From a virus, in the IMG/VR virus record IMGVR_UViG_3300027896_000014, positions 81,244 through 145,243 of that record: a DNA stretch of 64,000 nt; one strand, 5' to 3'. A program made the position numbers and the translations under genes. This document shows, piece after piece, positions 1 to 54,501 of this stretch (positions are counted from its first letter, which is position 1; the number at the start of each line of letters is the position of its first letter). Under the pieces are notes generated by a model. That model searched no databases and was not told the DNA's origin. It saw only the letters and a list, made by a program, of their open reading frames with translations.

Positions 1-628
1 CTTTCAATTTCTCTGGATCAGTTGTTGTTCCAGGAGGGAAAAAGTCTCCCTTCAATTCTTTTCGGCCTTCCTCACCTATATATTTTCCGAACGGAAGCTG
101 AGATTCTACCATTTCCAATGCGGTAGCTGGAATAGCAGCCAGATAGGGATGACGAGCAGCAAATGGAGAAGTGACAACTTTGGGTTCAACAACGGGAGGC
201 ACCTTGAGAGTCGGCCTTACTGGCTCATGAGAAGGGATGGGTTCCTCTTTCGGAAACCCCGACAAATCAACTCCTGGTTGTGCAGGTGTTTCACGTGCCA
301 CTTCAGCTGGCACTGGAGAAGGCTTCGGTCTCTCCATCGGTCTCATGAGATTCGGGTTAATCAGACCGGGAGGGGTGATGGGTGACACTGTTCGTTCCGG
401 GACAAGAGGGGTAGGGGACTTCTCAACAATCGGTTTAGGCAAGGCTTCCTGTACGGTAGGCTTTGCTTCGACACTCTTTTGAGGAGCGAGGTAGTTAATG
501 ATATCCTTGTGTGAGAATCCTGCTTTTATATGTTTTTGGAGGTCAAAATTTCTCGTCGAAGCAAGGTATTCTGCTATCTGCTCATCGGTTGCACCTTTAT
601 CTCGTGCCCACTGTATATCGTATGGCAT
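1..628 (-). CDS. Internal virion/ejection protein, N-terminal part (partial, runs off the window)
   Basis: ATG overlaps the stop of the 695-aa gene (TAATG); my translation MPYDIQWARDKGATDEQIAEYLASTRNFDLQKHIKAGFSHKDIINYL... stays open to position 1; Pro-rich. Confidence 0.75.
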   Translation of the reverse strand, partial: MPYDIQWARDKGATDEQIAEYLASTRNFDLQKHIKAGFSHKDIINYLAPQKSVEAKPTVQEALPKPIVEKSPTPLVPERTVSPITPPGLINPNLMRPMERPKPSPVPAEVARETPAQPGVDLSGFPKEEPIPSHEPVRPTLKVPPVVEPKVVTSPFAARHPYLAAIPATALEMVESQLPFGKYIGEEGRKELKGDFFPPGTTTDPEKLK

Positions 629-2715
629 TACCGTTCTCCACCAGAAAGATCGAGCGAAGACCGTTCCCGCTGTATTGCTCCAGGCATCGTGGGTTCAGTC
701 GTTCCTAACCCAAGACCAGGAGGCAATATCTTTCTTGTTTCGGTTGGGACATTGCCTTTCCTATTTAGTAAATCTACATTTGCATGTGTTCCCGCTATAG
801 CGGCAGATTTTATGGCATTGGTAAGAATATCCTTAATCAGAGGAGATTTTTGAATTCCCGTTGTCATATATCTGAATCCAGAAGGAGAAGTCATAAATTT
901 AGCAACGGCATAAGGACCTCCAAACAAAAAAACAACCCCCATTGCCGTAGAAGCAGGACGGTTCTTCCATGCTCCATAACTGACCAGCCCTCCTCCGGTA
1001 ATTATTTGGATCGTATGAAGTGTTTGAGCTGTGCCGGATGGATTCCCTGCTATCTTCTCAGCCATTCCAATATGTCGAGATAACTTTCTAAAGTCATCAA
1101 TCATTTTAAATTCTTTTTCATTAAATAAAGTTTTTAGGTATTTATCCCCAAATTTGTCTAACTCTATTCCCGTGGATGGGGCATCAAGAATTTTTACGAT
1201 ACCCGCCGGTGTTGTTAAATTTCTTTGGTGGCGGCTAAATAAATCAGTCAACCAAGCCTGCTTAACGCTCTGGAGTGTCGATTCCGGCAATACCTTTTTG
1301 ATGTCTTGTAATTCCGTAAGATTGCCCTTTGATATGATGTTTAAAAAATCCTCATTTTGAACCGTTGAAATTCTGCTACCTATGGAAGGTTTGCCTAAAG
1401 GTGTTTTCCCTTTAAATACCCCGAATATCTCTTCCCTCTGCCATTTCCGTGCATCATCAAGTGCAGATTTGGCAAGTGTTCCCGCTTGAGTGGCCGCTAA
1501 GTCCATATCTTTATCTATTGCTTTAAGCACTTGAGCAGCAATCCTATTCCCTACATCCCCAGATATTTCTTTATGGAAAGATAATTTAGATATAGCCCTT
1601 CTGATAGACTCAAGCTCAGAGAAATCCATTGTTTTTGCTATGCCCTGGCCTTGTAATTTGGCCAGAACATCTATGGGCATTCCTCCATATCTCGTGCCTG
1701 CCGTAACATTTGGAATCGGGCTAATATCTGAGAAAATCTTTTTCAGGACTGACTTTATTGGGGCTGGCAAATATTGAAAGTCTTTAGAATTTCTAATTTC
1801 ATTTACCAACTTGCTGGTGCTGGTTACCGTTGTCGGAGTCCCCGTCGCTTCCTTAGCGGCAATGTCATAGAGGTTATTTCCAAACTTTTCTATTGGGTCA
1901 AATTTTACTGCCATTCCTTCTCTCGCCACCTCACCCATAACGGTCTTGTCAAATGGACCTCCAAGACCAGCCAAAACTCTTTCACTATAAGCATTCATGT
2001 CTTGAATAGTTTTTGCTGCGGCTTTTTGGGTCACTCCTGCCCCCCCTATTGCCTTATCAGCCGCATTAAAAAGTAGAGCCTGTGTCTTATTCCCCGTGAT
2101 ATCTGGAGCAAGAACCGATACGTTCTCTCTCTTCGCCAAATCAATGATTCCTTGCATCTCCTTGGTCGTAGCTTTTGCGGTTCCAGGCAAAAGCTTATTA
2201 ATAAAACTTTGTCCAGCCTCTATTGCCATAGGAGCTGCTTTTTCTACAGGGATAGTTTTTTCTAAGGTCTTGGCTCCAAAACCAGGAATTATATTTGAAA
2301 CGCCCTTGTAAACACTTTTGGCAAGAGTAGGGACATTATAAGTTGCCCAATCCAATGCTTCTTTCCCTACGGCGGGTGTCAATTTACCTCCCGTTTTCAA
2401 TAATCCAAGAGTTCCCCCGGTCAAAACATTTTGTGCTGTTTCTACTGGATTAAATAAATATCCTTGAGGAAACCCTGGAGGTTCAAGACCAGGTTCCTTC
2501 TTTGGCCCCTCTACCGGAGGAGGAGTGATATATTGTTTCTCTTTGACTCCTAATTTTCCAAGGAGACCGAAAATACCACCAGCGGGTTCCTCTCCAACCT
2601 GAATAGGTGCTTCGGTGGCGGATGTTTTCTTCTCCTCTATCGCTCCACCGGATTTAATATGCTGAGATATCTCGTCCTCAGAAAATCCCGCTTGTCTTAG
2701 CTGTTCAGCATTCAT
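628..2715 (-). CDS. Internal virion/DNA ejection protein (695 aa)
   Basis: Large helical Ala/Gly/Lys-rich ORF after the tail genes; N-terminus LRQAGFSEDEI typical of podovirus ejection proteins. Confidence 0.7.
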   Translation of the reverse strand: MNAEQLRQAGFSEDEISQHIKSGGAIEEKKTSATEAPIQVGEEPAGGIFGLLGKLGVKEKQYITPPPVEGPKKEPGLEPPGFPQGYLFNPVETAQNVLTGGTLGLLKTGGKLTPAVGKEALDWATYNVPTLAKSVYKGVSNIIPGFGAKTLEKTIPVEKAAPMAIEAGQSFINKLLPGTAKATTKEMQGIIDLAKRENVSVLAPDITGNKTQALLFNAADKAIGGAGVTQKAAAKTIQDMNAYSERVLAGLGGPFDKTVMGEVAREGMAVKFDPIEKFGNNLYDIAAKEATGTPTTVTSTSKLVNEIRNSKDFQYLPAPIKSVLKKIFSDISPIPNVTAGTRYGGMPIDVLAKLQGQGIAKTMDFSELESIRRAISKLSFHKEISGDVGNRIAAQVLKAIDKDMDLAATQAGTLAKSALDDARKWQREEIFGVFKGKTPLGKPSIGSRISTVQNEDFLNIISKGNLTELQDIKKVLPESTLQSVKQAWLTDLFSRHQRNLTTPAGIVKILDAPSTGIELDKFGDKYLKTLFNEKEFKMIDDFRKLSRHIGMAEKIAGNPSGTAQTLHTIQIITGGGLVSYGAWKNRPASTAMGVVFLFGGPYAVAKFMTSPSGFRYMTTGIQKSPLIKDILTNAIKSAAIAGTHANVDLLNRKGNVPTETRKILPPGLGLGTTEPTMPGAIQRERSSLDLSGGER

Positions 2716-2718
2716 TTT

Positions 2719-5589
2719 TTACCCTCCAGTCCTTTTCAGATACTGCTGGATGGTTTCTCCGGGTAAACGTGACGCAACTTCTCCCGCCTGCCCTTGCTCT
2801 CCCACTGGATCAATTTTGTTCGCATCAATTCCAATGCCTTTGAGAATTTCACGGGATTTTTGGGATAAAAGTCTAAAATCTTTTGGCTTTCCCATTCCTG
2901 TCTCATATTGTGACTGTAAGGCTCCCAATCTTGATCCCATAAGTTCAATCGAACCGTCAATAAAAGCCTTCCACATTGTAGGAGTTGCAGTCGAGGGGTC
3001 GGTAATGGTATCGGCCCACGCCTTTATTGCCGGATCTGTAGCTCCACTTCTTTTGAATATACCTGCCATTTCATCCTTAACTGCATTAAACTTTGTCTTC
3101 ACACCCGCCACTGTTCCTTGTCTTGCAACCAATCCAGGGGTTACAGGAAAATATTTAGCCAATAAATTTACTGCAGCATTGCCTGTTACCCAATTACTAT
3201 TGGCAAGATCTTTCTGGGCATTAACTAAAGAATTAATATGTCCAACCGCAGTATTTAGGCCCAATATATTTTTTGCAGCAGTCCCAGAAGTAAAATCAAT
3301 CCTCAATCTCTGACGGACCGGATATTGAGTAGAATCGAAACTTGGATCATACAAGGCCGCCCTTGCAATAATATTTTTCCATTGTGGCGACCGTAAGGCG
3401 AACGAACTTGGATATGGGATTTTATAATCCACTAAATTTTTAATCACTGCTGCATCACTGGAGCTAAGCCCTTCCAATGCTGCTTCATTCCTTTGTCCGG
3501 GAAGACCAGGCGGAATTTCTCCAATTTCTGGTACTGCTACTCCTCCGCTTTGAATATCTATCTTCCTTTTTTTCTCGGCATCCAGTGTTCTCTGCGCCAC
3601 AATGGCCTCCGCAGTTGGTTTTCCATCCGGCCCCTTCTCTCCAGCTTTTGCAATAAGACCTAATTCGGTAGGAGATGGAACTGGCCTTTCTGCTCTCTTT
3701 ATTTCTGCTTGTTTGTCTAAAATTTCCTGATAGGTAGGTCTTCTATCAATCCCCTGCCTTTTAAGATCTTCCACGACTGCTCCTTTTGCTAATTCAAATT
3801 CGGTTGGAGATACCGCTCTTCCTTGACCTCTAGCCTCAACCGCAGCAACTCTCTCTTCTGATCCAAAGATTTTTTCTGGTATTCCCGCACTAATCCCGGT
3901 TAGGCGTGCTAACTGTTCCGTGAGCATTGGAATGTTTTTTAATGCCTCATCTCGCTGTATCCTTGCTGTCTTGGGGTTCTGAGACAACCCAAACCCCTGG
4001 GCTATATTTTTGTATTGGTCAAGCGATTTCTGGATTGCATCTATCGAAGGTTTAGTCTCTTCTCTGGCAACATCCATGATGCGCTCTTCAGGATGGACAT
4101 CGTAGTAGGTTGGTTTTGGACCCAATGAAGCCAGAGCTTGCTCTCGTCTGGTTTTTGCCCCCCCCTCTAACGTTGGCCTTAATGTCTCCAATGCCTCTTC
4201 CTGGGTAGGACGAACCCATCCTTTAGGAGTTGTAATTCCACCTTGACCTTCTGCACCGCGTATGGAATAACGGGTTTCTCCAGAGGGAAGAACTTCTTTA
4301 TTAATATCAGAAAGATTTCCCGATATACCGCCCTCTACCGGTTTGGTGGGTTCAGTCCCTGCGATCGGTGTCTGTTCCACCTTTTGAGCCTTGGGAACAG
4401 TCACAGTTGGCACACGAGAAGAAGCAAGAGATTCTATCGGAAACGCTGTTTTTAGCAGTTCCGCACGTCTTTTGCGCTCCTCTTCCGAAAGACCTTCAAG
4501 AGGATCAGGAGAAACTGCTCCTCCCTCTTGCCTTGACAATAGTGGTGTCATGCCAGGAGCCCCCGATGCCGCTTTTAAACGCTCGTATAAATCTGGCTCC
4601 TGAGCAATTCCATACTTCTTATTGTAAGCAGCCAACTGATCGGAACGAAACACGGGGGATCTCGTATTCTCCCTAAATGGAGGAGGATTTAATCCCTCCG
4701 TAACAGCAGGGGGTGGCGGAGGTGGTGGCGTTGCCGTATCGGTATCCGCCTGATCCGCATTACGCTGAGGAGCGTATGAGGCTAAAGAAAGTGTGGATGT
4801 CAGTGGTAGAGGCTTCGGTTCTAACGACTCCAAATTAGAAACCCATGGCGAGACATGGATAGGAGTAGACTTTAATAATGATGTGTTACGTCCCGCTTCA
4901 ATTCCTTGTTGGGTGGAAGCTCCCAAATTTTCATAAGAGGTCTCTTTAAAAAGGCTTGGATTAACTTCTCCACCCTCTTGCTTCGGGACAAGTGGAATTG
5001 TTGATCCAGCTTCCGTAGGGGTTGTCGTTAATGTTTGCTTCCCTTCCGGGGCAAAAGAACTCAACCCTCCCTCCGATGGGATATATTTACCCCCCTCCCA
5101 CCTACCAGCTTTCATTCCGGGTCTATAGTATATTGATTGATCGCTGAAAGACGGGTGCCCTGGTAACTTATAGGTATCTGGTAAATGTTCCGTTATACTC
5201 CTATGCCCTTTTAGCCAAGCTCCTCGGGTGTCATAAAAGTGTCTCGGATCATCTGGGTTTGGATTAAGTCCCATATTCTTTGCACGCTCTGCATACCATC
5301 CCTGGAAATTCTGCTCCATTTCAGGTGTAAACAAAGATTTCCAGTCCGGGGGTTGCCCTCCAGGGCTTACTTCTCCCCCGTCTTGTCTTGATTCCAACGG
5401 TATGACATTACCTTTTTTTGCAGGGAAGTATACTCCAGGGGCCGTCACTACTTCCGGCGCCCTCTCGGCTATCGTATAACCATGTGTCGGCTTCTGCACT
5501 TTCGGAGATCTTGGCTCCTTCAGGATATCCGAGAGGATATCAACCAGCCTCACATTCGTCCGTTTGTGCCAATCCTGTGATAGTTCCAT
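2719..5589 (-). CDS. Internal virion/ejection protein (956 aa)
   Basis: Position; long low-complexity N-half with three (R/K)QxGGxV motifs; helical C-half. Confidence 0.65.
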   Translation of the reverse strand: MELSQDWHKRTNVRLVDILSDILKEPRSPKVQKPTHGYTIAERAPEVVTAPGVYFPAKKGNVIPLESRQDGGEVSPGGQPPDWKSLFTPEMEQNFQGWYAERAKNMGLNPNPDDPRHFYDTRGAWLKGHRSITEHLPDTYKLPGHPSFSDQSIYYRPGMKAGRWEGGKYIPSEGGLSSFAPEGKQTLTTTPTEAGSTIPLVPKQEGGEVNPSLFKETSYENLGASTQQGIEAGRNTSLLKSTPIHVSPWVSNLESLEPKPLPLTSTLSLASYAPQRNADQADTDTATPPPPPPPAVTEGLNPPPFRENTRSPVFRSDQLAAYNKKYGIAQEPDLYERLKAASGAPGMTPLLSRQEGGAVSPDPLEGLSEEERKRRAELLKTAFPIESLASSRVPTVTVPKAQKVEQTPIAGTEPTKPVEGGISGNLSDINKEVLPSGETRYSIRGAEGQGGITTPKGWVRPTQEEALETLRPTLEGGAKTRREQALASLGPKPTYYDVHPEERIMDVAREETKPSIDAIQKSLDQYKNIAQGFGLSQNPKTARIQRDEALKNIPMLTEQLARLTGISAGIPEKIFGSEERVAAVEARGQGRAVSPTEFELAKGAVVEDLKRQGIDRRPTYQEILDKQAEIKRAERPVPSPTELGLIAKAGEKGPDGKPTAEAIVAQRTLDAEKKRKIDIQSGGVAVPEIGEIPPGLPGQRNEAALEGLSSSDAAVIKNLVDYKIPYPSSFALRSPQWKNIIARAALYDPSFDSTQYPVRQRLRIDFTSGTAAKNILGLNTAVGHINSLVNAQKDLANSNWVTGNAAVNLLAKYFPVTPGLVARQGTVAGVKTKFNAVKDEMAGIFKRSGATDPAIKAWADTITDPSTATPTMWKAFIDGSIELMGSRLGALQSQYETGMGKPKDFRLLSQKSREILKGIGIDANKIDPVGEQGQAGEVASRLPGETIQQYLKRTGG

Positions 5590-5606
5590 GATTTTCTCCT
5601 TTAACC

Positions 5607-7328
5607 CTATGTGCTGGATATGGTCTCAGTCGCACTCGCACTGTCGCTACGGCTCATTGATGCAGCCGCATGGATACTCGACAATGCACCGGCCACTTCT
5701 TGGGCAACGATGGCTCCCATAGCCTTGACAACCTCAATCCTTAATCCGGTGAGAGCTTCGTACTCGTTGATCTGGATTTCAGCATTTTTTTGATAGAGCC
5801 CTGCCCTCGAAATGGCAAGATTCGTTTGCGTCTTCAAGATCTCAATCGCAACGCTACTTAATGCCTGATATGCCTGAATATTAGCCCTGTATGCATCAAC
5901 TTCCGCATTAAAGGTCTTAACCAAGGCATCAATTCTGGCCGATTCTGCCTCAACCCCTACTCTAAACGCCGTTACTTCAGCCACATATGAATCCACAAGG
6001 GTTCTGGCTTCAGCTATCTTTACGTTTGAAACGGCTTGATACACTTTTATGGGAGCGTCTACCCTCGCTATCTCTGCATCGACCCCTACTCTGTACGCTC
6101 CCACCTCAGCTACGTATGTATCCACAAGGGTTCTGGCTTCAGCTATCTTTACGTTTGAAACGGCTTGATACACTTTTATGGGAGCGTCTACCCTCGCTAT
6201 CTCTGCATCGACCCCTACTCTGTACGCTCCCACCTCAGCTGTATAAATATCGACAGAATTCTTTGCTTCAGCTATCTTCACGTTTGAAACCACTTGATAA
6301 ATATCGGTCATAATTCGATATTTTCCGATTTCAATATTATAAACTTGAATTTTGGCCTCAACGGTCGCTCTCGAGGCCTCAAAAAGTCTCTGCTGAGTCG
6401 TTTGAAGGAAGTTCATCAAAATGCTTTCGAGTTGGGTAGCCTGAGCGATTGCTGACTGCCGAACCTGGATGGCAAGGTTTGACTCTTCAATTGCAATTTG
6501 GCCGCTTCTGTCATCATACGCATTTGCATATCTGATGTCCTCAGATTCAACTGCTGCCGATAAAGCTCCATCCGGCAAAGGTAAACCGCTCTTGGACCAC
6601 TCGGCACGTTTCTGGGCCAACATATCCTGATGGAGCAGTAAATCCCTTGCTCTCGCCCTATTCCACTTTGCGGTTTCGACAGATGGTCTATCTATGTCCG
6701 TCTGGACATCAGCTAATAAACGTGCCTTGAGAGCTGTCAGCAATGGTGATTCATACGTTACCGCAGCAGGATTGATGGGATCGGTTTGAACAACAAGGCC
6801 ACTGATGTCTGGAATGGCTAAGCCGCTGAGATCAATGGTTTTAAGATTACCTTTATCCGGGGGCAATCCAATGTTAAAAGTTATATCAGGAGCAGGCAGA
6901 TCAAGACTAAAAGTTTGTCTGACCGGAGGCGATCCAAAATTCATCGTGCTGTCAGGAACAGACAGATCAAGACTAATGGCTTGTCTGACCGGAGGCGATC
7001 CAATGTTCATCGCGCTATCAGGAACAGGCAGATCAAGACTAAAGGTTTGTATGACCGGAGGCGATCCAATGTTCATTGAGGTATCAGGTTTTGTAGGTGT
7101 CGTCTCGGTGAATGGAGTAATGGAATAATCGGCACCCTCAAGCGCGACGTTTGTATCAATTTGCTTGATTTGACCGGAGATGGTCGCAAGATTATTCAAG
7201 AGTCCTTCAGCCAAATTTCTTGCCTGCGTCACATAGTCTCGGGCCAGATCGAATTGTTTTTCAACCTCGACCATCGCCACTTCATAAATAGGGACACCGC
7301 CAACGGTGCCAGGGGTGCCATTAGACAT
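5607..7328 (-). CDS. Virion coiled-coil protein with 20-aa and 39-aa tandem repeats
   Basis: 573-aa ORF with visible repeats; lies between tail and ejection genes. Confidence 0.6.
   Translation of the reverse strand: MSNGTPGTVGGVPIYEVAMVEVEKQFDLARDYVTQARNLAEGLLNNLATISGQIKQIDTNVALEGADYSITPFTETTPTKPDTSMNIGSPPVIQTFSLDLPVPDSAMNIGSPPVRQAISLDLSVPDSTMNFGSPPVRQTFSLDLPAPDITFNIGLPPDKGNLKTIDLSGLAIPDISGLVVQTDPINPAAVTYESPLLTALKARLLADVQTDIDRPSVETAKWNRARARDLLLHQDMLAQKRAEWSKSGLPLPDGALSAAVESEDIRYANAYDDRSGQIAIEESNLAIQVRQSAIAQATQLESILMNFLQTTQQRLFEASRATVEAKIQVYNIEIGKYRIMTDIYQVVSNVKIAEAKNSVDIYTAEVGAYRVGVDAEIARVDAPIKVYQAVSNVKIAEARTLVDTYVAEVGAYRVGVDAEIARVDAPIKVYQAVSNVKIAEARTLVDSYVAEVTAFRVGVEAESARIDALVKTFNAEVDAYRANIQAYQALSSVAIEILKTQTNLAISRAGLYQKNAEIQINEYEALTGLRIEVVKAMGAIVAQEVAGALSSIHAAASMSRSDSASATETISST
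5930..6300. repeat. 117-bp (39-aa) coding tandem repeat, about 3 copies
   Basis: VYQAVSNVKIAEARTLVD.YVAEV.A.RVGV.AE.AR.DA units; two copies nearly identical at DNA level. Confidence 0.9.
6860..7090. repeat. 60-bp (20-aa) coding tandem repeat, 3-4 copies
   Basis: gaccggaggcgatccaa and cagatcaagactaa recur every 60 bp (MNIGSPPV.Q..SLDLP.PD). Confidence 0.9.
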
Positions 7329-17442: not shown

Positions 17443-17793
17443 CTACTTCAGACCCTTTTTTGACTTCTCGATCACGCCAATGAGAGTATCTTTTTTGCCC
17501 GAAGGTTCCTGAATCCCAACTTTCTTCAATTGAAACTCCACCGTGTACCTCTTCTTGCCTTCCTTCTGTTCGTTCATCCGAATTTCGGTAACTTCCCCTA
17601 CTCCCTGAATGGTGAGCTCTTCACCGATTTTCACCTTTTCAAGCTGAGGTAGCTTCGCAACCTGTTCGGATTCAAACCGAATTTGAAGGCCATACGGATA
17701 TTTCGGGCCTTCGCCTCCAATAGGGGTAGGCATCGTTTCGGCCTTTAGTTCCTTTTTCGTTTTCTTTGGAAGTTCGAGACTGACCATTTCCAT
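17443..17793 (-). CDS. Capsid staple/gp10-like protein
   Basis: YPYGLQIRF....V.KL...VG......G...V pattern. Confidence 0.55.
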   Translation of the reverse strand: MEMVSLELPKKTKKELKAETMPTPIGGEGPKYPYGLQIRFESEQVAKLPQLEKVKIGEELTIQGVGEVTEIRMNEQKEGKKRYTVEFQLKKVGIQEPSGKKDTLIGVIEKSKKGLK

Positions 17794-17814
17794 TTGATTT
17801 ATCTCCTTTCTTTC

Positions 17815-17843
17815 TTGACAATCAAATTACGCAAATGTATACT
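17815..17843 (+). promoter_or_regulatory. sigma70 promoter TTGACA-17-TATACT with degenerate operator in the spacer
   Basis: Near consensus; ATG at 17851 follows 7 nt after the -10 box. Confidence 0.75.
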
Positions 17844-17850
17844 TATAAGT

Positions 17851-17997
17851 ATGAAAATCAAACTACCTCCTCGGCTAAAGTGCAAACGTTGCGGATACAC
17901 ATGGACTCCGCGACAAACCGACGTAAGAATCTGCCCACGGTGCAAATCGGCTTTGTGGGACAAAGTGAAGAAGGAGAAGCATGAAAACATGGACTGA
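17851..17997 (+). CDS. Small Zn-ribbon protein
   Basis: CKRCGYTW.PR....ICPRCKS..WD. Confidence 0.65.
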   Translation: MKIKLPPRLKCKRCGYTWTPRQTDVRICPRCKSALWDKVKKEKHENMD

Positions 17998-18745
17998 ATC
18001 TGAGTTGGAGATTCTTCGCAAATATTTCCCCACCGATTCCAAGGAGTCCCTTTCTGCTATGTTCAACAGAACCTTTGACACAATCCGCACCAAAGCCACA
18101 AGGATGGGGATTCGTAGAATTCTCGGGGCTCAGTGGACGAAGGAAGAATTTGACATTCTTCGCAAATTTTATCCAACTGGTTCCGAGGATGAACTTGTTA
18201 CATTGCTTCACAGATCGTTCAACACAATCAGTTGTCAGGCTCAGAGATTGGGTATTCGTAGGCTTGGAATCTGGTGCAGACAAAAACTTGAGGATAGATT
18301 TGAAAATTTTGTTATACCCGAACCTAACAGTGGGTGTTGGCTCTGGATGGGAGGAGAAAATAGACAAGGGTATGGACAAATTGGGAATGGTAACGGAAAA
18401 GATGTTCGTGCCCATCGTGTTTCTTGGGAAATTCATAATGGTCCTATTCCACAGGGCTTTTGGGTACTTCATTCCTGTGACAACCCATCTTGCGTAAATC
18501 CTCAGCACCTCTTTCTTGGAACACCTCAGGATAATATGGACGACTGTTGCAAGAAAAAGAGGCAAACTTATGGATCTCGCAATTGTAAGGCCAAACTTAC
18601 TGATGCTGACGTAATCAAAATCAGGCAAGATCCTCGATCCCCAAAAGAAATAGGTATATCCTTTGGTATATCCAGGGCTACGATATACAACATTAAAGAC
18701 AGTAGAACTTGGAAACATATTCCAAGTAACTCCACAATCTCCTAG
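17981..18745 (+). CDS. HNH homing endonuclease with N-terminal Myb/SANT-like repeats and C-terminal HTH
   Basis: CWLWMG...GYG...AHRVSW...VLHSCDNPSCVNPQHL..GT..DN..D. Confidence 0.9.
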   Translation: MKTWTESELEILRKYFPTDSKESLSAMFNRTFDTIRTKATRMGIRRILGAQWTKEEFDILRKFYPTGSEDELVTLLHRSFNTISCQAQRLGIRRLGIWCRQKLEDRFENFVIPEPNSGCWLWMGGENRQGYGQIGNGNGKDVRAHRVSWEIHNGPIPQGFWVLHSCDNPSCVNPQHLFLGTPQDNMDDCCKKKRQTYGSRNCKAKLTDADVIKIRQDPRSPKEIGISFGISRATIYNIKDSRTWKHIPSNSTIS

Positions 18746-19026
18746 GCTCTTCCTTCTAATTCTCATCTTCCCACCTAAATCCACAAAAGGGGCAGCATCC
18801 CGCCCAATCTGGGTCATCGAGGAAGATCTGTCCACACTTTTTACAGTGAATTACATAAGTATTTCCTGGGTTGGGATCAATAGACCCTTCGCTTACGGTT
18901 TGATCGGCCATACCTAATCCTCCTTAATGTGCCCACAGACCTTACACACCTTAAAGGTTCTCCGGCCCTTCTTCACCTTTTTCCAACTGCATTCTCCACA
19001 GGATGGGCATTTATCTGGGGACCCCA

Positions 19027-19509
19027 TTAAACGTTAATACCCATCTCTTTTAGCACGCTTGGTCCCTTGTCTATTTTAGGTCTCCCAGAGGTGCGTTTCG
19101 ACTCCTTAATATCCTTCGGCTTCTCTGCCTTTCCGGTTACCGCCTCAGCCGCTTCCTCTGGCCCCGTGGGCTCCTCATCTTCCATCAATTCGGCTTGTGC
19201 CTGCAGGAACTGAATCTGGACCAGCAATTCCGCCTTTGTCATCTTCTTGCCAGCGGGCGGTGCTTCTTCCTCTTTCCCCACCCCTCCGAATTTCTGATCC
19301 CACCACGCCAGCGCCTTCTGCTTGTGGTAGTCAGGAATAAGCTCAAGAAGTGATCTGTCCTCTACCAGTTCACCGTTCAGAAGAATGTAGTCCCCACCCG
19401 TCGTCTCGAGGACATTGCCTTGTTCCGTCGTGAAATTGTGAATCGTCCAAAACTCCTTTCCGTTCAACACCATTCTCGATCCTTCCGGTACTGCTGGTTT
19501 TGGTAACAT
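19027..19509 (-). CDS. Hypothetical protein (head region)
   Basis: ORF with RBS, acidic/basic tail. Confidence 0.55.
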   Translation of the reverse strand: MLPKPAVPEGSRMVLNGKEFWTIHNFTTEQGNVLETTGGDYILLNGELVEDRSLLELIPDYHKQKALAWWDQKFGGVGKEEEAPPAGKKMTKAELLVQIQFLQAQAELMEDEEPTGPEEAAEAVTGKAEKPKDIKESKRTSGRPKIDKGPSVLKEMGINV

Positions 19510-24136: not shown

Positions 24137-24730
24137 ATGCTTACACTTAAAGGAAGGCAGCTCGGCGGCAGGGCCGCCAATAAAGTTTGTTACGAACGTG
24201 CCAAAGTACTGTATTACGCCTCTCCAAATCACTGCCAATACTGCGGTAAAATAATTCAAATAGTGAGAGTAATTCAAGAAGCTCGAAGAAAGAAATTTTG
24301 TAATAAGTCTTGTGTGGCTTCCTTTCAGCATGAGAAGTTTAGGAACCGCCCGATTGCCCCTAACCGCATTTGTCCAGATTGCGGAGGTAAAAAGGAAAAA
24401 GCGAGTAACAAAAGATGCTTGGCTTGTTACCGTCTCAGCCACCGTATGAGTCCAGAAAGAACCAAGGCATCTTTGATTTCTGGAAGGAAGACTTGGCAAT
24501 CCTTTAGAAACGCCATCTCCAAACACGCCCGATTGGTATTTCTTGAAGCCAATATTAAAAAGTCTTGCTATGTGTGCGACTATGACAAACATACGGACGT
24601 TGCCCATAATAAACGTGTCTCGGAGTTTCCGGACAGTGCTACGATAGCCGAAATAAATTCCTTGGATAACCTTTTTGCACTTTGCCCGAACCACCATTTC
24701 GAACATGATCATGGTCTCCTAAAACTTTAA
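24137..24730 (+). CDS. HNH endonuclease with Zn-finger repeats
   Basis: CQYCGK...KFCNKSC; CYVC....DVAH...N...N.FALCPNHH.EHD. Confidence 0.85.
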   Translation: MLTLKGRQLGGRAANKVCYERAKVLYYASPNHCQYCGKIIQIVRVIQEARRKKFCNKSCVASFQHEKFRNRPIAPNRICPDCGGKKEKASNKRCLACYRLSHRMSPERTKASLISGRKTWQSFRNAISKHARLVFLEANIKKSCYVCDYDKHTDVAHNKRVSEFPDSATIAEINSLDNLFALCPNHHFEHDHGLLKL

Positions 24731-24739
24731 TCCCGCAAT

Positions 24740-25096
24740 CTATTCTATATTTGGTATTTCCCTTGCCTGCCTTCCCAATCTTATCCGCGTCAACCTTTTG
24801 GCTGCCGCCTCTCCAATCTGGATATCTCGTCCAAGTTTATCAAGCATTCGAATGCATGTCTGAGTTCGAGGATTAGTATTCACAAATTCCTCTATTAGTT
24901 GCTGGAGTTCCTCTTCGACCATAGCCACAAAAAACTTTCCGGCCCTCGTCTTTAGCTTCTGTTCGGCCTCTATGCCAGCAGAGGCATCCGCTTCAAGCTG
25001 GCCCTCCAATAGTTTTTCTCTCTCTGTAGGACTACGATCTCTTGGCCTTCCACTTCTAATATCAACCGCCATCCCGCCAATGATGATATCGCTCAT
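24740..25096 (-). CDS. Hypothetical head-morphogenesis protein
   Basis: Helical 118 aa between portal and scaffold. Confidence 0.5.
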   Translation of the reverse strand: MSDIIIGGMAVDIRSGRPRDRSPTEREKLLEGQLEADASAGIEAEQKLKTRAGKFFVAMVEEELQQLIEEFVNTNPRTQTCIRMLDKLGRDIQIGEAAAKRLTRIRLGRQAREIPNIE

Positions 25097-25338
25097 TTCT
25101 TCCTCTTCTTGGTCGGTGCATACGAACTCAGAGACGATCCCTGACCGATTGATGGAAATTTGGCCTTTACCGCAGCTCTAACCCTACCCGCAACCGGTTT
25201 ACCAGAGGCGCGAGCCAATGCGTTCTTACCATGTGCAATATCAGGAATCGGATAGGACCCTGCCCCTGGAGCCTTGCTCGGTATTGCGAATTGACTCTTG
25301 GAAAGTCTTTTTCTTTCGGAATAACTTAGCTTTGCCAT
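25093..25338 (-). CDS. Small basic protein (DUF6582-like)
   Basis: L...ER..L..SQFAIP.....YPIPD.AH..NALAR. Confidence 0.65.
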   Translation of the reverse strand: MAKLSYSERKRLSKSQFAIPSKAPGAGSYPIPDIAHGKNALARASGKPVAGRVRAAVKAKFPSIGQGSSLSSYAPTKKRKK

Positions 25339-25364
25339 TTCATTCCTCCTGAGGAATATTGAAA

Positions 25365-25658
25365 TTAAACAGGAACTCGCCTCATCCTTTTTTTCGCCCT
25401 CTTTGCCTTCTTGCCTCCCGCCGGCATAAATCCCGCCAAAGGCGTACCCTTCATTTTCATAACCTTTGATCTCCCGGGAGAGACAGGCCCCCCTTTAGCC
25501 CTTGGAGTTAATGGAACATCTCTCCACGGACGTGGACCTATCCATGGACGAGCAACCCCGCCTTGTGCAACACGTTCTCCCTTGCCGTAGGGCACCTTTG
25601 GCTTAGGAGCGGTAATGCCTGCGGCCTCTTCCATTTTTTCAATATAGCTTTTCGCCAT
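25365..25658 (-). CDS. Small basic K/R/P/G-rich protein
   Basis: RBS; C-terminal KMKGTPLAGFMP plus basic tail. Confidence 0.65.
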   Translation of the reverse strand: MAKSYIEKMEEAAGITAPKPKVPYGKGERVAQGGVARPWIGPRPWRDVPLTPRAKGGPVSPGRSKVMKMKGTPLAGFMPAGGKKAKRAKKRMRRVPV

Positions 25659-25680
25659 CGTCTTTTCCCTTCACTTAAAA

Positions 25681-25929
25681 TTAGACTGCAAGCCTCTTCT
25701 GGCCCTTCTTCCCCCGCTTAGACTTGGGTGAAGGCATGAACGCAGAAAGCGGCCTTCCCTTCATCTTCAATGGAGACGTGGTTGCTCTCCTGGTTCCGGG
25801 TGGAGGTCCCATCCCGGGTGCCACAGGTGCCACGGGTGGAATTCCAGTCCTCGGTCCAGGTCCAACCATCTGTTTTGGCATTGACTTCATTTTCTTAGTA
25901 TCAAAAGGATCTCCTTTTCCTCTAGCCAT
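25681..25929 (-). CDS. Small basic K/P/G-rich protein
   Basis: RBS GGGAGG; C-terminal KMKGRPLSAFMP plus basic tail. Confidence 0.65.
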   Translation of the reverse strand: MARGKGDPFDTKKMKSMPKQMVGPGPRTGIPPVAPVAPGMGPPPGTRRATTSPLKMKGRPLSAFMPSPKSKRGKKGQKRLAV

Positions 25930-25931
25930 AA

Positions 25932-26141
25932 TTACCTCCCTTTCTTTTTTTTTGGTGTGAACGAGCTTAATGGAACTCCCCTTTGTTTTCGCCATCCACC
26001 TTTGGGAGTAATTCCATGCTCCTTCATGTTTAAAAGTCTCTCTTGTGCAAGAGCTTTTTTCTTGGTTGTACTCTTGCTTTTTACGCCCGAAGGCGTACTG
26101 ACTCTATACCCATCAATCTTTTTGACTCTAACTGGGCTCAT
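25932..26141 (-). CDS. Small basic protein
   Basis: YRV.TP.G.KSK.TTKKKA.AQ.RLL; C-terminal GVPLSSFTPKKKK. Confidence 0.65.
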   Translation of the reverse strand: MSPVRVKKIDGYRVSTPSGVKSKSTTKKKALAQERLLNMKEHGITPKGGWRKQRGVPLSSFTPKKKKGR

Positions 26142-26636
26142 CAAAAATCCTCCCTGTTTGATTTAGTTCCTTTACTTGTTGCCATAATTTTTCTTCAATG
26201 CCAGTATAGGTATTTTTGCTACTACCCTTCATAAATTTACCCTGACCATCTTTTAAAATAACTTTATTTTCAATCGCTTTTTTTCTAATATCGCAAAATT
26301 CTATAACCAATTGTGCCTGCTTTTTCTTTATCTTTAAATGGGGTTGTATCACTCTTAAAAAGTTCGATACTGTTTTATTCCCGTAAAATCCCCATCTATA
26401 TACAGGCTTATGATTATTATTTTGTGCTTACTTATTCCGTTACTTCCACCGAAAAAAATTCTAATAAAATCAACCGCCTCTGGTTGGGCTTGGGTAACTA
26501 CGACCATCGGCTTATAATTTTCAGTTATACTACCTCTACGTCTATTCTCTTTTTGCCTTCCCAATCCAACATATCCATCACTATCAATAACCCCAGCGAT
26601 GTATCCTAAGTCTTCAGGATTGATCTTTACTGGCAT
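26128..26636 (-). pseudogene. Single-motif LAGLIDADG homing endonuclease, frameshifted near 26425
   Basis: GYIAGVIDSDG motif; -1 frame continues KPVYRW...FLRVIQPHLKIKKKQAQL. Confidence 0.8.
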
Positions 26637-27760: not shown

Positions 27761-28120
27761 CTATTTTATTGAAGCCATACCCTGATTCTTCCCACCATAC
27801 CAATCTTGTTTTCCCCAAAATTGGTCGGCCCTTCCGCAACTAACTATGAACTCTAAAACGTTGGCGATATTGTGAGTAGCATCGGAGAGAAATTTAAACA
27901 GGATACAATGTGTTTTCTTCAAGTCTCCGAGAATCCTACAGATAATAAACCACTCGAACATCTCGTGGACCGCCACACCAATCTGTTTCAATTTCTCCTG
28001 GCCAGGAGTCCATATGTAAATGTCGCCTCCGGATGTCCACCAGCCCATTTCCTCACTGAGCCATGCCTCCTGATATTCGTCCTTGAAGTATTGATCTTGA
28101 TCGGTAAAGATGAATTTCAA
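27761..28120 (-). CDS. HExxE metal-binding (zincin-like) protein
   Basis: AVHEMFE...H..A...E. Confidence 0.5.
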   Translation of the reverse strand: MKFIFTDQDQYFKDEYQEAWLSEEMGWWTSGGDIYIWTPGQEKLKQIGVAVHEMFEWFIICRILGDLKKTHCILFKFLSDATHNIANVLEFIVSCGRADQFWGKQDWYGGKNQGMASIK

Positions 28121-28129
28121 GTTTCCCCC

Positions 28130-29548
28130 CTAAAACCTAAAGTCGTCTCCCTTCATGGCATTCACTTCTTTGATAATTTGAAGCACGTCCGTCTCGAACT
28201 TTGCAGGAAAGGAGCTATTGGCCATTTCGATCTGGGAAGCAATCTTACTGGCCGCATCTACTGCGGCTTTCGGAGTTTTCCCGTATCCCATCGCCGTCGC
28301 TACGACGTGATCACCCGGATCGAACCAATGGTCTCCTGCCTTTTGTACGATACGCCTGAATCCCATGTCTTTTCTTATTTCTTTCGGGAAATGAATCACT
28401 TCCCACGTCTTAATGTCATCGGTATAAACTCCGACCTGGGTGACATAGCCGGGCTCCACTTCCGCTCGGACGTTCTGACCGGCCGCAATCTTATAGGTAT
28501 ATTCTGGAAAGTTCTTTATGTATCTTGACTGAATCGCACCGCAGGGCCAGGCATCACGAGACGTTGGATCGTGGACTCTAACTTTCTTTCCGTCCCAAAA
28601 GAACTCAAAGCTGATATTGCCGTGATAACCGGATTTGATGAGAGAAGGCTTTATTTTGTTTAGGATATGCTCATCGATCCCATTCTCCTCCACCCAAACT
28701 CCGATTGTTCCCTCTCCTTTCACTTCTATCGTGTAGAGGAAAGGCCGGATATAATCCCTTCCATTGAAACCGACATCGACACCCAATTCTTTGCCTGGGC
28801 ATGATCGCTGAATCAAAATCTCAAGGTCCTCACGGAATGGCCCAAAACCGGCCTGTTCGAGCGCCACGGCCATCTGTACTCGATTTTTCACGCCCTTCCC
28901 TGTCTCTTTATTGCCTCTATACTCTCCAACTTTTGGGAAGAAGAGAGTCTTGCCATCGGTGTGTTTATCCATGTACTCAAAAGCCTCATCAAAACCATGG
29001 ACAACATCTCCATCGGGGACGCCGACGCCCATCTCTTGAAGCCGCTGCCATCCCTTCACACGGTTATTTTCATTCTCGGTCCACCAGAAGGAAGGACCAT
29101 AAACGATTTTCCCCTCATCACGCCAGATATCGGCATCCTTCCCGAAACAACAATCCGAGATATAAATAAAATCCTTTTGGGCAGCTTCCATCATGCTGTG
29201 GATCTTGTGAAGCCCCTTAAAGCCATATCCCGAGATTTGGTTCTCGATCGACGGGTAGGCTGCGGCACCGGCAATAAAGTAATACACTTCAAACTCCCTC
29301 ATGAGTGCCAGGGCGTGATCAATCCCTAAATTGGTGTCGATGAAGCCAACGGTCCGTGGCATTCCATGTTCCCGCTTAGGCATAGAAATAGCCTTGGTCG
29401 CTTTTGCCGTCTGATAATTGGCGATTTCTGCATAGGAATATCCCTCTTTGTGTGCCTCTTCGACCTTAAAACCCGTAAATCCAGCGAGATAAAAGGCTAT
29501 CTCCCGGTATGAATGACCCTCTTTTCTTTGGGCCTCGACATCGTACAT
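28130..29548 (-). CDS. PurD-like ATP-grasp ligase with ejection-protein-like N-terminal repeat
   Basis: VYGPS.....ENNR..G...L...GV.VP, F.EA.EY, F.K, ILIQ...PG.E.GV...FNG, GYHG.I, V.D.TSR.AWP. Confidence 0.7.
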   Translation of the reverse strand: MYDVEAQRKEGHSYREIAFYLAGFTGFKVEEAHKEGYSYAEIANYQTAKATKAISMPKREHGMPRTVGFIDTNLGIDHALALMREFEVYYFIAGAAAYPSIENQISGYGFKGLHKIHSMMEAAQKDFIYISDCCFGKDADIWRDEGKIVYGPSFWWTENENNRVKGWQRLQEMGVGVPDGDVVHGFDEAFEYMDKHTDGKTLFFPKVGEYRGNKETGKGVKNRVQMAVALEQAGFGPFREDLEILIQRSCPGKELGVDVGFNGRDYIRPFLYTIEVKGEGTIGVWVEENGIDEHILNKIKPSLIKSGYHGNISFEFFWDGKKVRVHDPTSRDAWPCGAIQSRYIKNFPEYTYKIAAGQNVRAEVEPGYVTQVGVYTDDIKTWEVIHFPKEIRKDMGFRRIVQKAGDHWFDPGDHVVATAMGYGKTPKAAVDAASKIASQIEMANSSFPAKFETDVLQIIKEVNAMKGDDFRF

Positions 29549-31356
29549 TATTGTCCCTCAAATGCGGAAAGGGGTCTACGCGTAGGTTCCCCTTCACCGG
29601 GGGCCAAAGCCCCGGGAACCAAACCAGCTCCACCGGCAGTCGGCGGAGGCGCCTGATCAAGTGCCTCTGCCTGGTCATCCGTCATAATGAAGTCCGGGTC
29701 ATGAAACCCGAACGCATTAACTTCGTGTTTTAGAAGCTTATACGGCTTAAAATACTTACCGAATGTGGAGCTTTCTGCCTGCTTAAGAAAGGCTTGATAC
29801 ATTTGAATAAGCTGACTATTCTTGATTGCGGCAGATATCCCCATGATCTTAATATCGCAATTGGCCTTCAACATCTCCTTGCGTTGTTCAATGGACATCT
29901 GAGCGAACTTTTGAGCATTCGGATTGTTTTTCATAACACGGGAAATACTGGGATCTGAGTATTCATTCCAGTTCAGGACCACTACCTCTAAAGCAGCTCT
30001 AATCGTATTGACCGCACCTTCTTCTATATCCTCACCTATTGAATCGAAGACTGTCATGGACTGACCGAGCAATATCTCAGCCTCTCCCTTTGTTTTTTGG
30101 CTTTTAGTTCCACGTTGGCCAGCTGCTAATTGAGTAAGCATTGAGGAAGCTTCCCGGCGTTGGTCCCAGTGTTGAAGCGTGGCCAGCGTTTCGTTGCTTG
30201 AGGGACTCGTGTAAACCTCCTTAACCACCGGTTGGCCAGGTGGCGCATCTTGCCTACGAAAGACCGTCTTACCAGGAAACATGGCAACATCCGTAGGGTC
30301 CTCGAGATCCATCCGGTTTAGTTCTCGAAGTTTATTGACCCGCCACGAGAGATCGTCGATATGGAGGCTCATTAAGTTGCAGCTATTAAGCCACAGAAGA
30401 AGAGAGGTCTCAATAACTCCGTGTCCCTCAAACGTAAATAAATCTGGAAGGGGGGAAAAAGATATGCCTGGCCATCGCATCGTCACGAAAGGATTTGGTT
30501 CAGGATTTCGGATCAAAACATCTCCTGCCACGGTAAACCTGGCATTATCGAGGAGAAGTTCTCCCGATTTATCCAAAATAACGCCCCAATGCTCGATCAA
30601 CCTCACGGCTTTTCTAAAACTGCTTCGTTGATAATATTGACCTTTCCTGCGGGCCCGTTTTTCCGCAGTTTCCTGGCCCCAGCTCGATTCATTGGCCGTG
30701 ACCTCATTCAACCTCACATACCGTCCACCGAGTTTTTTGACCTTCCATAAATCAAGCCACTCCACATGATCCCAGTAATCTCCCGACCATGGCTCCCGTG
30801 GCGATGCATCCGAATCCCGATAGATCTGCCATGGAGGAACGAGAGAAAAAACCAACCCCTTTCCTGGAACCCACCTCGGAATCATCTCATGGGATTGACC
30901 GATCGCAAAACCGAGTTCTGTTCCATCAGAAAACGCAGTATCTAGGTGGGCGTGTTGAGGATTGAACCAAAACTCAGAAGCATCTCTAAGGAAAGAGGCA
31001 ATCCATTTTTCATTCTCATCATCTGGATTCACCGCCTCGATTTTATACCAATCTGGCTGGCGAAGTGCTTTTCGGATAATCGCCACTCCCTGTTTAACCG
31101 TGGAGGTCATATCCCCAGTTGTCATTTTGGCCTGCCAATCTTCTTTCTCCGAATAATCAATATCTGCCTTGTAAGCCCTATAGCACTGATCCCAGAGATA
31201 TCTAACTTCTAAGTTGGCTTGCTCTGACTCCGTAATGCAGCTATGAGCGAAGTCAACAAATGTGTCAGGATCTTCGACACCATAAGCCGATGCTGCCTCT
31301 TCACGTTCCGCCAGCTCTTGATCATCCCACCCCTGGGTCCCTGCATCATTCGCCAT
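29548..31356 (-). CDS. Portal protein (podovirus type)
   Basis: 602 aa; W...YR.Y, V.PW.IY.D, (L/I).E.WG, G.G..E, T.GE..I pattern. Confidence 0.85.
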   Translation of the reverse strand: MANDAGTQGWDDQELAEREEAASAYGVEDPDTFVDFAHSCITESEQANLEVRYLWDQCYRAYKADIDYSEKEDWQAKMTTGDMTSTVKQGVAIIRKALRQPDWYKIEAVNPDDENEKWIASFLRDASEFWFNPQHAHLDTAFSDGTELGFAIGQSHEMIPRWVPGKGLVFSLVPPWQIYRDSDASPREPWSGDYWDHVEWLDLWKVKKLGGRYVRLNEVTANESSWGQETAEKRARRKGQYYQRSSFRKAVRLIEHWGVILDKSGELLLDNARFTVAGDVLIRNPEPNPFVTMRWPGISFSPLPDLFTFEGHGVIETSLLLWLNSCNLMSLHIDDLSWRVNKLRELNRMDLEDPTDVAMFPGKTVFRRQDAPPGQPVVKEVYTSPSSNETLATLQHWDQRREASSMLTQLAAGQRGTKSQKTKGEAEILLGQSMTVFDSIGEDIEEGAVNTIRAALEVVVLNWNEYSDPSISRVMKNNPNAQKFAQMSIEQRKEMLKANCDIKIMGISAAIKNSQLIQMYQAFLKQAESSTFGKYFKPYKLLKHEVNAFGFHDPDFIMTDDQAEALDQAPPPTAGGAGLVPGALAPGEGEPTRRPLSAFEGQ

Positions 31357-53100: not shown

Positions 53101-53859
53101 TTATTCAAACATCACCGTTTGATCGGGGTTACCTTTGCCGCCACCCCTGGAAGACAACCACCATTCAAACATTTCCTTACCAGATTTCCATCTTTGCATA
53201 GAAGGTCTACCATGATTTTTTTCATAGAGCTTTATGAACGCTTTCTCAAAAGCTCCCTTCATCCTCGGCCAGCGTTCGGCTTCCCTTGCCCTCGAATAAT
53301 TGTATGGACACATCACGCAACCAATCCGCTTGAATCCCTCATCATAGAGACAACAATATGGAAGATTTCTCTCCTTGATAAATGCCCAAACGTCCTGCTC
53401 GGTCCAATCAATAATTATGTTTACATAGGTTTTGGATGAATCCCTGTAACATTGTTCGACCATTTTACGACCCGCTCGCTTCTGGGATTCGTCAGATCTG
53501 ATGCCAGTCAGAACCCTTCTACCAGATCCAGAATTCTCTTTATACTCCTGGCAGCACCATCGGTTGATACGCATCGGGAAGCCTTTTTCAACCATTCTCG
53601 CAAGGAAAGGCTTTTCTGGTCTTTCCCAAACCACATCGGAATGATGCTTACGAATGAAATAAATCAATTCAGGCGGATCAATGGTGGTCACGTTGTAATG
53701 CCAATCGACCTTAACTCCGACCATTTCAGCCAATTCTTTAATCACACAGGAGTCCTTACCTCCAGAAAAAGCACCAAAGTATCCTTCAGGCGGCTCAAAT
53801 ATCCTCAACCGTTCAATTGTTTCTTTAACCTTGTCGTGGCCGAATAGATCTCTGCTCAT
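53101..53859 (-). CDS. PAPS reductase family (PP-loop) protein
   Basis: AFSGGKDS, RWCC...K, GIR.DES..R, RIGCVMCP. Confidence 0.85.
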   Translation of the reverse strand: MSRDLFGHDKVKETIERLRIFEPPEGYFGAFSGGKDSCVIKELAEMVGVKVDWHYNVTTIDPPELIYFIRKHHSDVVWERPEKPFLARMVEKGFPMRINRWCCQEYKENSGSGRRVLTGIRSDESQKRAGRKMVEQCYRDSSKTYVNIIIDWTEQDVWAFIKERNLPYCCLYDEGFKRIGCVMCPYNYSRAREAERWPRMKGAFEKAFIKLYEKNHGRPSMQRWKSGKEMFEWWLSSRGGGKGNPDQTVMFE

Positions 53860-54320
53860 TTAAACTCCAAGTCTCCAGGCGGCGTCCAGTTCCAGAGACC
53901 CAGGGCACCCTTTGCGGAAATCGGTTCTTTCAGTTTCCGGACATTTTCCAAAAACCACATGAAACGACCCAAGGTATAGTCTCCGAAGGCCTTCTCTTGG
54001 TCTGAGATCAAAAGCGGCCCCTCGTGGATTGGGAAGACAGTCTCAAGTTCACAGATTGCAATGATGTCTCCCCTGGGAAAAGGAAAATAAGCATCAATAA
54101 AAGAAAGATCTGGCGAGTTAAAATAATTTATGATGACCGAATCGAATGGCTCCTTATCGCAGACGTAATACTTCGATCTCATGTCAATATACTTTCTTTC
54201 CTGGCTCGCATGGATAGCCAGTGGACCTCGATACCTTGTTGGCCACGATCGAGTCTCAATTTTCTTCTCTGAAATTGAGATTAGGGTTGCCCAAGGCTGA
54301 TAAAGAGTAAGTGCCTTCAT
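53856..54320 (-). CDS. ASCH domain protein
   Basis: MKALTLYQPWATLI....K.IETRSW.T.YRG.LAIHA; G.LGLW. Confidence 0.85.
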   Translation of the reverse strand: MKALTLYQPWATLISISEKKIETRSWPTRYRGPLAIHASQERKYIDMRSKYYVCDKEPFDSVIINYFNSPDLSFIDAYFPFPRGDIIAICELETVFPIHEGPLLISDQEKAFGDYTLGRFMWFLENVRKLKEPISAKGALGLWNWTPPGDLEFK

Positions 54321-54501
54321 GCTCGGTATGGTCCTTTCAGAGTAAGCGCTTCGAGGAATTTCTCAGGATCTAATTCACTGTCGAGAATCGTACTCCATAT
54401 TTTCCCACCCATGGAGACAAGCACAATGGTGACTTCGGGGGCCTTCGTATCACCAGCAAGGTAGACACCGGGATTCTTAATCATGTGCTCAACTTCTTTT
54501 C

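Follow-up and report, generated by a model that had tools for sequence, protein, structure and literature searches.

Enzymes made late in phage infection can be packaged for use in the next host, as has been tested for T4 Alt and the N4 virion RNA polymerase. The activities known to be injected are ADP-ribosylation, acetylation, methylation and transcription. For polyvalent proteins and their solo versions, whose genes lie among the late structural ones, packaging and injection have been argued and predicted (Iyer, Burroughs, Anand, de Souza and Aravind, 2017; PMC5512222). Here we describe a predicted ATP-grasp ligase of 472 amino acids (aa), encoded directly downstream of a portal-like gene in a virus contig from IMG/VR (IMGVR_UViG_3300027896_000014). 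The gene lies at positions 28130-29548 on the minus strand of a 64,000-nucleotide stretch of this contig, hereafter the window, to which all positions refer unless stated otherwise. The first 48 residues of the ligase form a module that recurs at the start of ejection-type proteins in the same phage and in many others, and we see about an even chance that the enzyme is packaged into the virion and ejected with the DNA.

Giant proteins that carry the module have the features which define polyvalent proteins (LPD1, LPD38, ART-PolyVal and the methylase-SNF2 pair; PMC5512222), and relatives of the ligase are likewise multi-enzyme fusions encoded beside the portal. The logic would also be the same, with late-made enzymes delivered together with the DNA. 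However, the window ligase has a single catalytic domain, where a polyvalent protein, encoded among virion or transfer genes, has at least two disparate catalytic or effector domains, as do the ligase relatives at two other loci (L009 and L011, see below). Word searches of PMC5512222 returned no amidoligase, lactamase (metallo-beta-lactamase, MBL) or DNA ligase, and ATP-grasp proteins appeared there only as RNA ligases. The capsid targeting sequence of the T4 internal proteins and Alt offers a second likeness, being a short N-terminal element that a single phage places on otherwise unrelated proteins, among them an enzyme active in the next host (in part from PMC5512222). It differs in having about 10 residues and in being cut off by the prohead protease, whereas the module is a folded 48-residue domain of two repeats found across hundreds of phage lineages. 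A third comparison is with the ejection (pilot) proteins of short-tailed phages, T7 gp14/15/16 and P22 gp7/20/16 (PMC8954989), which resemble the window in that a three-gene cassette ends the structural operon; in other contigs the neighbors of module carriers are annotated as DNA ejection proteins, as proteins released upon infection or as an internal virion protein with an endolysin domain. In contrast to this likeness in layout, no sequence match to the T7 or P22 proteins was seen, and the N-terminal module is undescribed for them.

The module of the ligase (aa 1-48, 29405-29548, minus strand) consists of two units of ~22 aa, as does its counterpart in a 2409-aa polyvalent or ejection-type protein, of which the first 209 aa lie in the window (2-628, minus strand; module aa 1-48 at 485-628). 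Ligase residues 2-45 align with residues 3-46 of the 2409-aa protein without a gap and with 16 of 44 positions identical (BLASTP E 6e-10). A preliminary description of the window, made from the sequence alone, had drawn attention to this alignment, and it was borne out by a hidden Markov model (HMM) built from 149 database carriers with no window sequence included. When run on 743 open reading frames (ORFs) of the contig, this independent HMM matched the ligase N-terminus (residues 1-50) at E 1.8e-17 and the 2409-aa protein at E 1e-22. The consensus unit is FDVEGARKAGYSDEEIAxYLA, and the module has two such units in tandem, each helix-turn-helix-like; the ligase carries two FD[VL]xxAxKxG[YF]Sxx[ED]Ixx[YH]L units in an N-terminal stretch of ~48 aa. 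AlphaFold predicted four helices in this region, with a predicted local distance difference test (pLDDT) score of 82-94. The module is followed by a flexible linker (aa 49-63, 29360-29404, minus strand) in which pLDDT falls to 66, and to below 50 at residues 59-61, and beyond which most homologs start. A word-based search with the 50-aa module returned only the ligase itself.

Matches to the module were confined to three ORFs of the contig, encoding the ligase, the 2409-aa protein and a 695-aa protein (628-2715, minus strand). The motif G[YFHAW][ST]..[ED]I occurred five times in six frames, compared with 0.74 times in shuffled sequences, and four of the five occurrences fell in the N-terminal regions (residues up to ~45) of the proteins that these ORFs encode. 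The third copy, also claimed in the preliminary description, stood only in part: one weak, degenerate unit could be recognized (aa 3-20, 2656-2709, minus strand), and its significance was marginal (BLASTP E 0.27; independent HMM E 0.013, for half a domain). Because the C-terminal part of the 695-aa protein is homologous to full module carriers (P0150, E 1e-11, and P0114), a decayed copy of the module is a plausible reading of this unit. Codon comparison with a related 88 kb genome, G001, gave 6 synonymous changes and 1 non-synonymous change in ligase codons 1-50, and 126 synonymous and 50 non-synonymous changes in the enzyme body. The 6:1 pattern in the module indicates that it is kept by purifying selection on the protein.

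To place the module more widely, we built a profile from five double repeats and compared it with 1.84 billion representative proteins; 828 protein clusters matched at E <= 1e-3 and 19 at E <= 1e-10. Among the 149 best carriers, 130 have a module that begins no later than residue 12. Carriers range in size from 49 to 4452 aa, and at least 60 unrelated groups are represented among their C-terminal parts. Giant carriers combine an Eco57I-type methylase, an SNF2 helicase and LPD38, or DUF6908 with methylase and helicase, or contain ART-PolyVal, and by these domain architectures are textbook polyvalent proteins. Mid-size carriers are mostly without a Pfam or PHROG family, although a few match tape-measure, DNA-ejection, endolysin or internal-virion families; zeta-toxin kinase, GNAT, DnaJ and FtsK-gamma domains were each seen in single carriers. 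The module is not covered by any Pfam family (matches to DUF7626 and HTH_38 stayed below threshold), and none of the Pfam LPD families matches the 48 aa.

In a scan of viral contigs, 145 module instances were confirmed and 80 kept, and in each of the 80 kept loci it is the module that begins the protein, whose length is 500-950 or 1800-2700 aa. The genes around these carriers are those of an ejection cassette, of which the carrier is the last gene; in podovirus-type cassettes the module heads the largest protein. Two to three genes upstream, 27 loci have a family that matches phrog_598 ‘DNA ejection’. The immediate upstream gene has a match to phrog_2534 (‘released from the phage upon host infection’) in 11 loci, and in 6 it encodes an internal virion protein that includes an endolysin domain; the remaining neighbors of carriers are virion or tail-fiber proteins. 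A further 12 instances, in genomes of Burkholderiales, Moraxella, Campylobacter and other bacteria, lie in cassettes of this kind within prophages; strains with such prophages include Pseudorhodoferax sp. Leaf274, Acidovorax delafieldii 2AN and Moraxella osloensis. The repeat is therefore portable and N-terminal, and it typifies polyvalent proteins and those of ejection cassettes, as 828 clusters and 80 of 80 viral loci attest; common occurrence in non-virion proteins was not found, with the exception of small membrane-anchored or exported carriers (~9%, discussed below). On these comparisons the module is real, widespread and unannotated.

In the window, the end of the structural operon is formed by genes for 956-, 695- and 2409-aa proteins. 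The 956-aa protein (2719-5589, minus strand) is the first of this three-gene cassette, and its C-terminal 240 aa are homologous (E 1e-33) to the product of the gene that immediately precedes module carriers in viral contigs other than this one. The 2409-aa ORF extends beyond the window edge and is complete in the contig (contig 74642-81871), with LPD1 at aa 2288-2363 (E 9.6e-20) and homology to the giant carriers P0026, P0027, P0031 and P0034. That the three are ejection proteins, as they had been labeled at the outset, is supported by this homology to carrier cassettes with ejection-annotated neighbors. The 2409-aa protein also matches the plant BRX domain model (PF08381) at aa 1587-1629 (E 3.4e-5), in its part beyond the window, as does a 2139-aa protein encoded in the other half of the contig (aa 866-907, E 2.1e-7); of the two, the match in the 2139-aa protein is above cut-off, and in this region the proteins have a 110-aa stretch in common that is 59% identical.

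The contig is a single virus sequence of 145,243 bp with 45% GC, and the window is its right-hand 64 kb (contig 81244-145243), where nearly all genes are on the minus strand. From position 31356 along the direction of transcription, the genes encode a portal-like protein of 602 aa (29548-31356, minus strand), the 472-aa ligase, a 119-aa protein and a 254-aa protein. Downstream of the 254-aa protein there is a row of small basic proteins, with an HNH gene inserted on the opposite strand, and further on a 394-aa protein, a 319-aa major-head-like protein, a connector and other structural proteins. The 602-aa ORF is tentatively called portal-like, from weak matches to PHROG portal/adaptor families (phrog_1216, E 2.7e-6; phrog_332, E 8e-9) and from its position; in G001 a 93% identical homolog likewise lies directly upstream of the ligase. 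The start codon of the ligase overlaps the stop codon of the portal-like gene as TAATG, with GAGGGA 8 nt upstream, an arrangement that confirms the translational coupling to the portal noted previously.

The body of the ligase (aa 64-472, 28130-29359, minus strand) had been read as a PurD-like ATP-grasp fold, and structural comparison upheld this. A database search with the ligase recovered 24 homologs, which were aligned for AlphaFold and for a family profile. The resulting model had a pLDDT of 91.4, and the top ten Foldseek matches in the PDB were all glycinamide ribonucleotide (GAR) synthetases (PurD; compare PDB 2yw2, 3lp8 and 1vkz), followed by biotin carboxylases. The best match, 2yw2, had E 5.6e-21 and template modeling (TM) scores of 0.67 by query and 0.74 by target over ~430-450 columns, which is nearly the full length of PurD. 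The family profile searched against the PDB also recovered PurD (2yw2, E 8e-11; 2yrw, E 3.4e-10); this profile was needed, as phmmer with the single ligase sequence returned only noise (E 0.4-0.8). Residues K206, R211, G212, E215, E254, D258, E275, K277, E315, D327 and R331 are invariant in the ligase family. Of these, K206, the glycine-rich R211-G212 loop, E254, E315, D327 and R331 align with the ATP-binding Lys, the flexible loop, the acidic Mg2+ ligands and the Arg of PurD.

The likeness to PurD does not extend to all features, and the Asn of the E-x-N magnesium motif is not kept, the N-terminal module is extra, and the genes around the ligase are those of a virion module. Pfam and PHROGs, searched with the ligase and with the portal-like, 119-aa, 254-aa and cassette proteins, gave no match for the 472-aa protein, and the Pfam GARS families (GARS_N, GARS_A and GARS_C) none at E <= 0.1; a relative at locus L008 matches GARS_A at 27.2 bits, where the cut-off is 27. 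Among the viral structures of BFVD only generic ATP-grasp proteins were found, with TM scores of at most 0.55. With 12-16% identity to PurD, no GARS match and a setting among structural genes in place of purine-synthesis genes, the protein is very unlikely to be a GAR synthetase, and we regard it as probably an active, divergent carboxylate-amine ligase of the ATP-grasp superfamily, judging from the model and the conserved residues. Its substrate is surely different from that of PurD. By these searches the family is new to Pfam and PHROGs. In one homolog (P0008, 780 aa) the sequence is interrupted by a LAGLIDADG_3 (PF14528) insertion, probably an intein; inteins mostly occupy conserved sites of important phage proteins.

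The ligase family was examined at 10 viral and 26 metagenome loci. Wherever the neighbors could be named, the ligase lies one to four genes after the portal or two to three after the large terminase, on the same strand (G001, L004/L109, L005/L112/L115, L007, L129, L008-L010 and L011). In L009 a 1320-aa protein has the ATP-grasp as its C-terminal part and contains, in addition, domains of an MBL-fold hydrolase and of an ATP-dependent DNA ligase; L008 and L010 have these MBL and DNA ligase domains in the gene just upstream of the ATP-grasp, and in L011 MBL, a Dam-type methylase and the ATP-grasp are joined in one ORF directly after the portal. The order in L004 is portal, GNAT, ligase, a 98-aa partner and a 1259-aa protein in which an intein, HEAT repeats and a DRAT-like ADP-ribosyltransferase were recognized. 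The family thus clusters near the portal with other effector-type enzymes and is fused to such enzymes in some phages. In L008 (292-918), L009 (2464-3174) and L010 (1733-2359), proteins of 208-236 aa encoded upstream of the terminase have weak matches to the repeat HMM at about residues 58-69.

N-terminal elements were observed in other branches of the family as well. In L004 the peptide Y..[IV]KDISSE[VI]L is common to the ligase, the GNAT and two further proteins; its bearers follow the portal (L004:5336-13084) and comprise the GNAT of 264 aa, the ATP-grasp of 440 aa and proteins of 293 and 120 aa, and three of the four continue with GGPGSG[HN]WGHxGRPG. The L004 peptide differs from the window module, and the family has thus twice gained an N-terminal element that is also present on further proteins of the virion module it belongs to. 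A third extension, …DVDPLF[IV]SLVKHGANQQPF…, is present in P0005, P0007 and L108. The other half of the contig encodes a 428-aa paralog of the ligase (contig 53136-54422, plus strand) that is 24% identical and has no tag; it directly follows the gene for the 2139-aa giant, which is homologous to module carriers yet is itself without the module.

In the explanation we favor, the ligase would be made late, together with the portal, in a lineage that gained the 48-residue double helical-hairpin module on the enzyme by way of the flexible linker. The common module would bring the ligase into the procapsid along with the ejection proteins, and the enzyme would exit with them at the next infection. 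On meeting ATP in the new host, it would ligate a carboxylate, such as an amino acid, to an amine of a host or phage target; DNA, the basic microproteins or a host target had been put forward at the outset as possible substrates. We infer capsid loading, ejection and the type of target from the fold and conserved catalytic residues of the enzyme, from how the module is related and distributed, and from the gene contexts and fusions. An injected enzyme fits well with the late co-expression with the portal, with the module, and with relatives that are fused to DNA ligase or Dam or have GNAT and ADP-ribosyltransferase neighbors. In a broader version of this explanation, the module would be a general ‘ejectosome address’, so that any protein beginning with it is loaded and ejected along with the ejection proteins and varied enzymes can be injected; its exported, membrane-anchored copies in prophages would serve as decoys, preventing superinfection by phages whose ejection proteins match. 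We offer this broader version tentatively, as possible but less likely than not.

Several observations weigh against injection of the ligase. Most ligase-family members have little or no N-terminal extension, and no ATP-grasp protein is among the best 150 module carriers, so that the fusion of module and ligase appears to be a rare, lineage-specific event. The phage is uncultured, and neither the ligase nor a consensus-like natural module gave a tblastn match in 50,697 isolated-phage records (INPHARED). In the ligase family the Asn position of the E-x-N motif is occupied by T, C, S or A, and for this reason Mg binding may differ from that of PurD. The module is internal in 14 of 149 carriers (~9%), 11 of which have a hydrophobic signal or membrane segment before it; the carriers with a signal peptide, lipobox or membrane helix are small proteins, and the internal-module carriers point to a role in the cell envelope and not in the capsid interior. 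One such protein is found in G001 itself (L014:1342-2109, plus strand), where a protein of 255 aa combines a lipobox signal and the double repeat with a membrane helix at its C-terminus and is encoded among helix-turn-helix (HTH) regulators, beside an integrase-like ORF. Exported carriers similar to it are P0028, P0042, P0044, P0048, P0056 and P0081. Exported copies should face the periplasm, and can be read either as a sign that the module acts in the envelope or as decoys against incoming ejection proteins; the L014 protein is a candidate superinfection-exclusion decoy.

These points bear differently on the other explanations. The ligase might stay unpackaged, with the module as a docking or oligomerization domain that binds the ejection proteins or other carriers late in the producing cell, where the enzyme would modify them or other virion parts (e.g., the basic microproteins) before assembly. 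Such docking would account for a module shared by the enzyme and two cassette proteins of the same operon, for late co-expression with structural genes and for the many untagged family members that remain in the head module, and it would take place in the cytoplasm, which has ATP where capsid and periplasm do not. We nevertheless judge it rather unlikely, as fusion to DNA ligase or Dam, and proximity to a GNAT and an ADP-ribosyltransferase, suit an effector set better than a morphogenesis enzyme, and a module on at least 60 unrelated protein groups would be odd for the substrate-recognition domain of one rare enzyme. Alternatively, the module could be an envelope docking domain, for periplasm, peptidoglycan or inner membrane, that is used after ejection and places the ligase at the entry site or membrane. 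The hydrophobic segments ahead of 11 of the 14 internal modules and the lipoprotein-type copy in the regulatory region of G001 are in line with this, as is the action of T7- and P22-type ejection proteins in the envelope (PMC8954989). However, the periplasm would offer an ATP-dependent enzyme no ATP, the module begins at residue 1 in 87% of carriers, in proteins that lack a signal peptide, and the exported copies can alternatively be taken as decoys binding incoming ejection proteins; we consider envelope docking unlikely.

We think it improbable that the module is a DNA-binding helix-turn-helix, with the ligase as a modifier of phage DNA or of a DNA end, either ahead of packaging or once the DNA has entered. 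The units look helix-turn-helix-like in the AlphaFold model and relatives are fused to DNA ligase and Dam methylase, but the similarity to HTH_38 (E 0.048) is far below threshold, exported or membrane-anchored copies cannot meet DNA, and no base-modification genes were recognized beside the ligase. Finally, an ordinary auxiliary metabolic PurD that boosts purine synthesis has in its favor that two of the 24 homologs are called phosphoribosylamine-glycine ligase by the Joint Genome Institute (JGI) and that PurD is the best structural match. This reading was rejected on context and divergence and is very hard to credit: besides the low identity and the missing GARS match, the gene is always in a virion module, with tag, small partner or DNA-enzyme fusions, and no other pur genes were seen nearby.

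The adjacent 119-aa protein with an HExxE motif (27761-28120, minus strand) had been suggested as a possible partner of the ligase. It or a relative is encoded one to four genes downstream of the ligase in 7 loci, and H52, E53 and E56 (HExxE) together with H83, N87 and E90 (the pattern HExxE...H...N..E) are invariant in the family. The association recurs but is not obligatory, as the family is absent from G001, the closest relative. The AlphaFold2 model had a pLDDT of 60 and no fold match was obtained (best VIA-align Z 4.0, among unrelated helical matches; ESM Atlas <= 0.88). The protein may be a small metal-binding partner, and as a guess it could be a minimal zincin-like fold of a beta sheet, the HExxE helix and a helix with H83, N87 and E90. 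Further downstream (25093-26144, minus strand), four or five Lys/Arg/Pro-rich proteins of 70-104 aa have KMKG.PL[SA].F.P in common, followed by a basic tail, and the portal C-terminus ends in RRPLSAFEGQ (near 29551-29580, minus strand). The motif common to the basic proteins and the portal end may be a cleavage, docking or modification site.

The head module is interrupted by the opposite-strand HNH-type endonuclease gene (24137-24730, plus strand) and by a LAGLIDADG-like ORF of 93 aa (26355-26636, minus strand), both absent or different in G001. The contig as a whole resembles two related phage genomes in series, with the genes of ~0-61 kb mainly on the plus strand and those of 61-145 kb on the minus strand. 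Its halves have another module in common, distinct from the N-terminal one (contig 100-5707 and 61241-66540) with 70-94% protein identity, and a pair of 515- and 536-aa proteins that are 57% identical (contig 17706-19253 and 120610-122220). This may reflect tandem prophages or an assembly join.

Virion-delivered enzymes are known; what appears to be new here, from sequence comparison, is the enzyme class and a widespread N-terminal module that had not been described. Proteins injected with phage DNA are hard to read from sequence, and the module would give annotators a handle on such cargo, besides being a candidate tag for loading foreign proteins into particles. The exported copies of the module hint at a decoy form of superinfection exclusion. 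If the ligase is indeed injected, a PurD-like amide ligase would add ATP-dependent ligation of amino acids or other carboxylates to the injected activities, and would represent a new chemistry among the effectors that phages deliver with their DNA.

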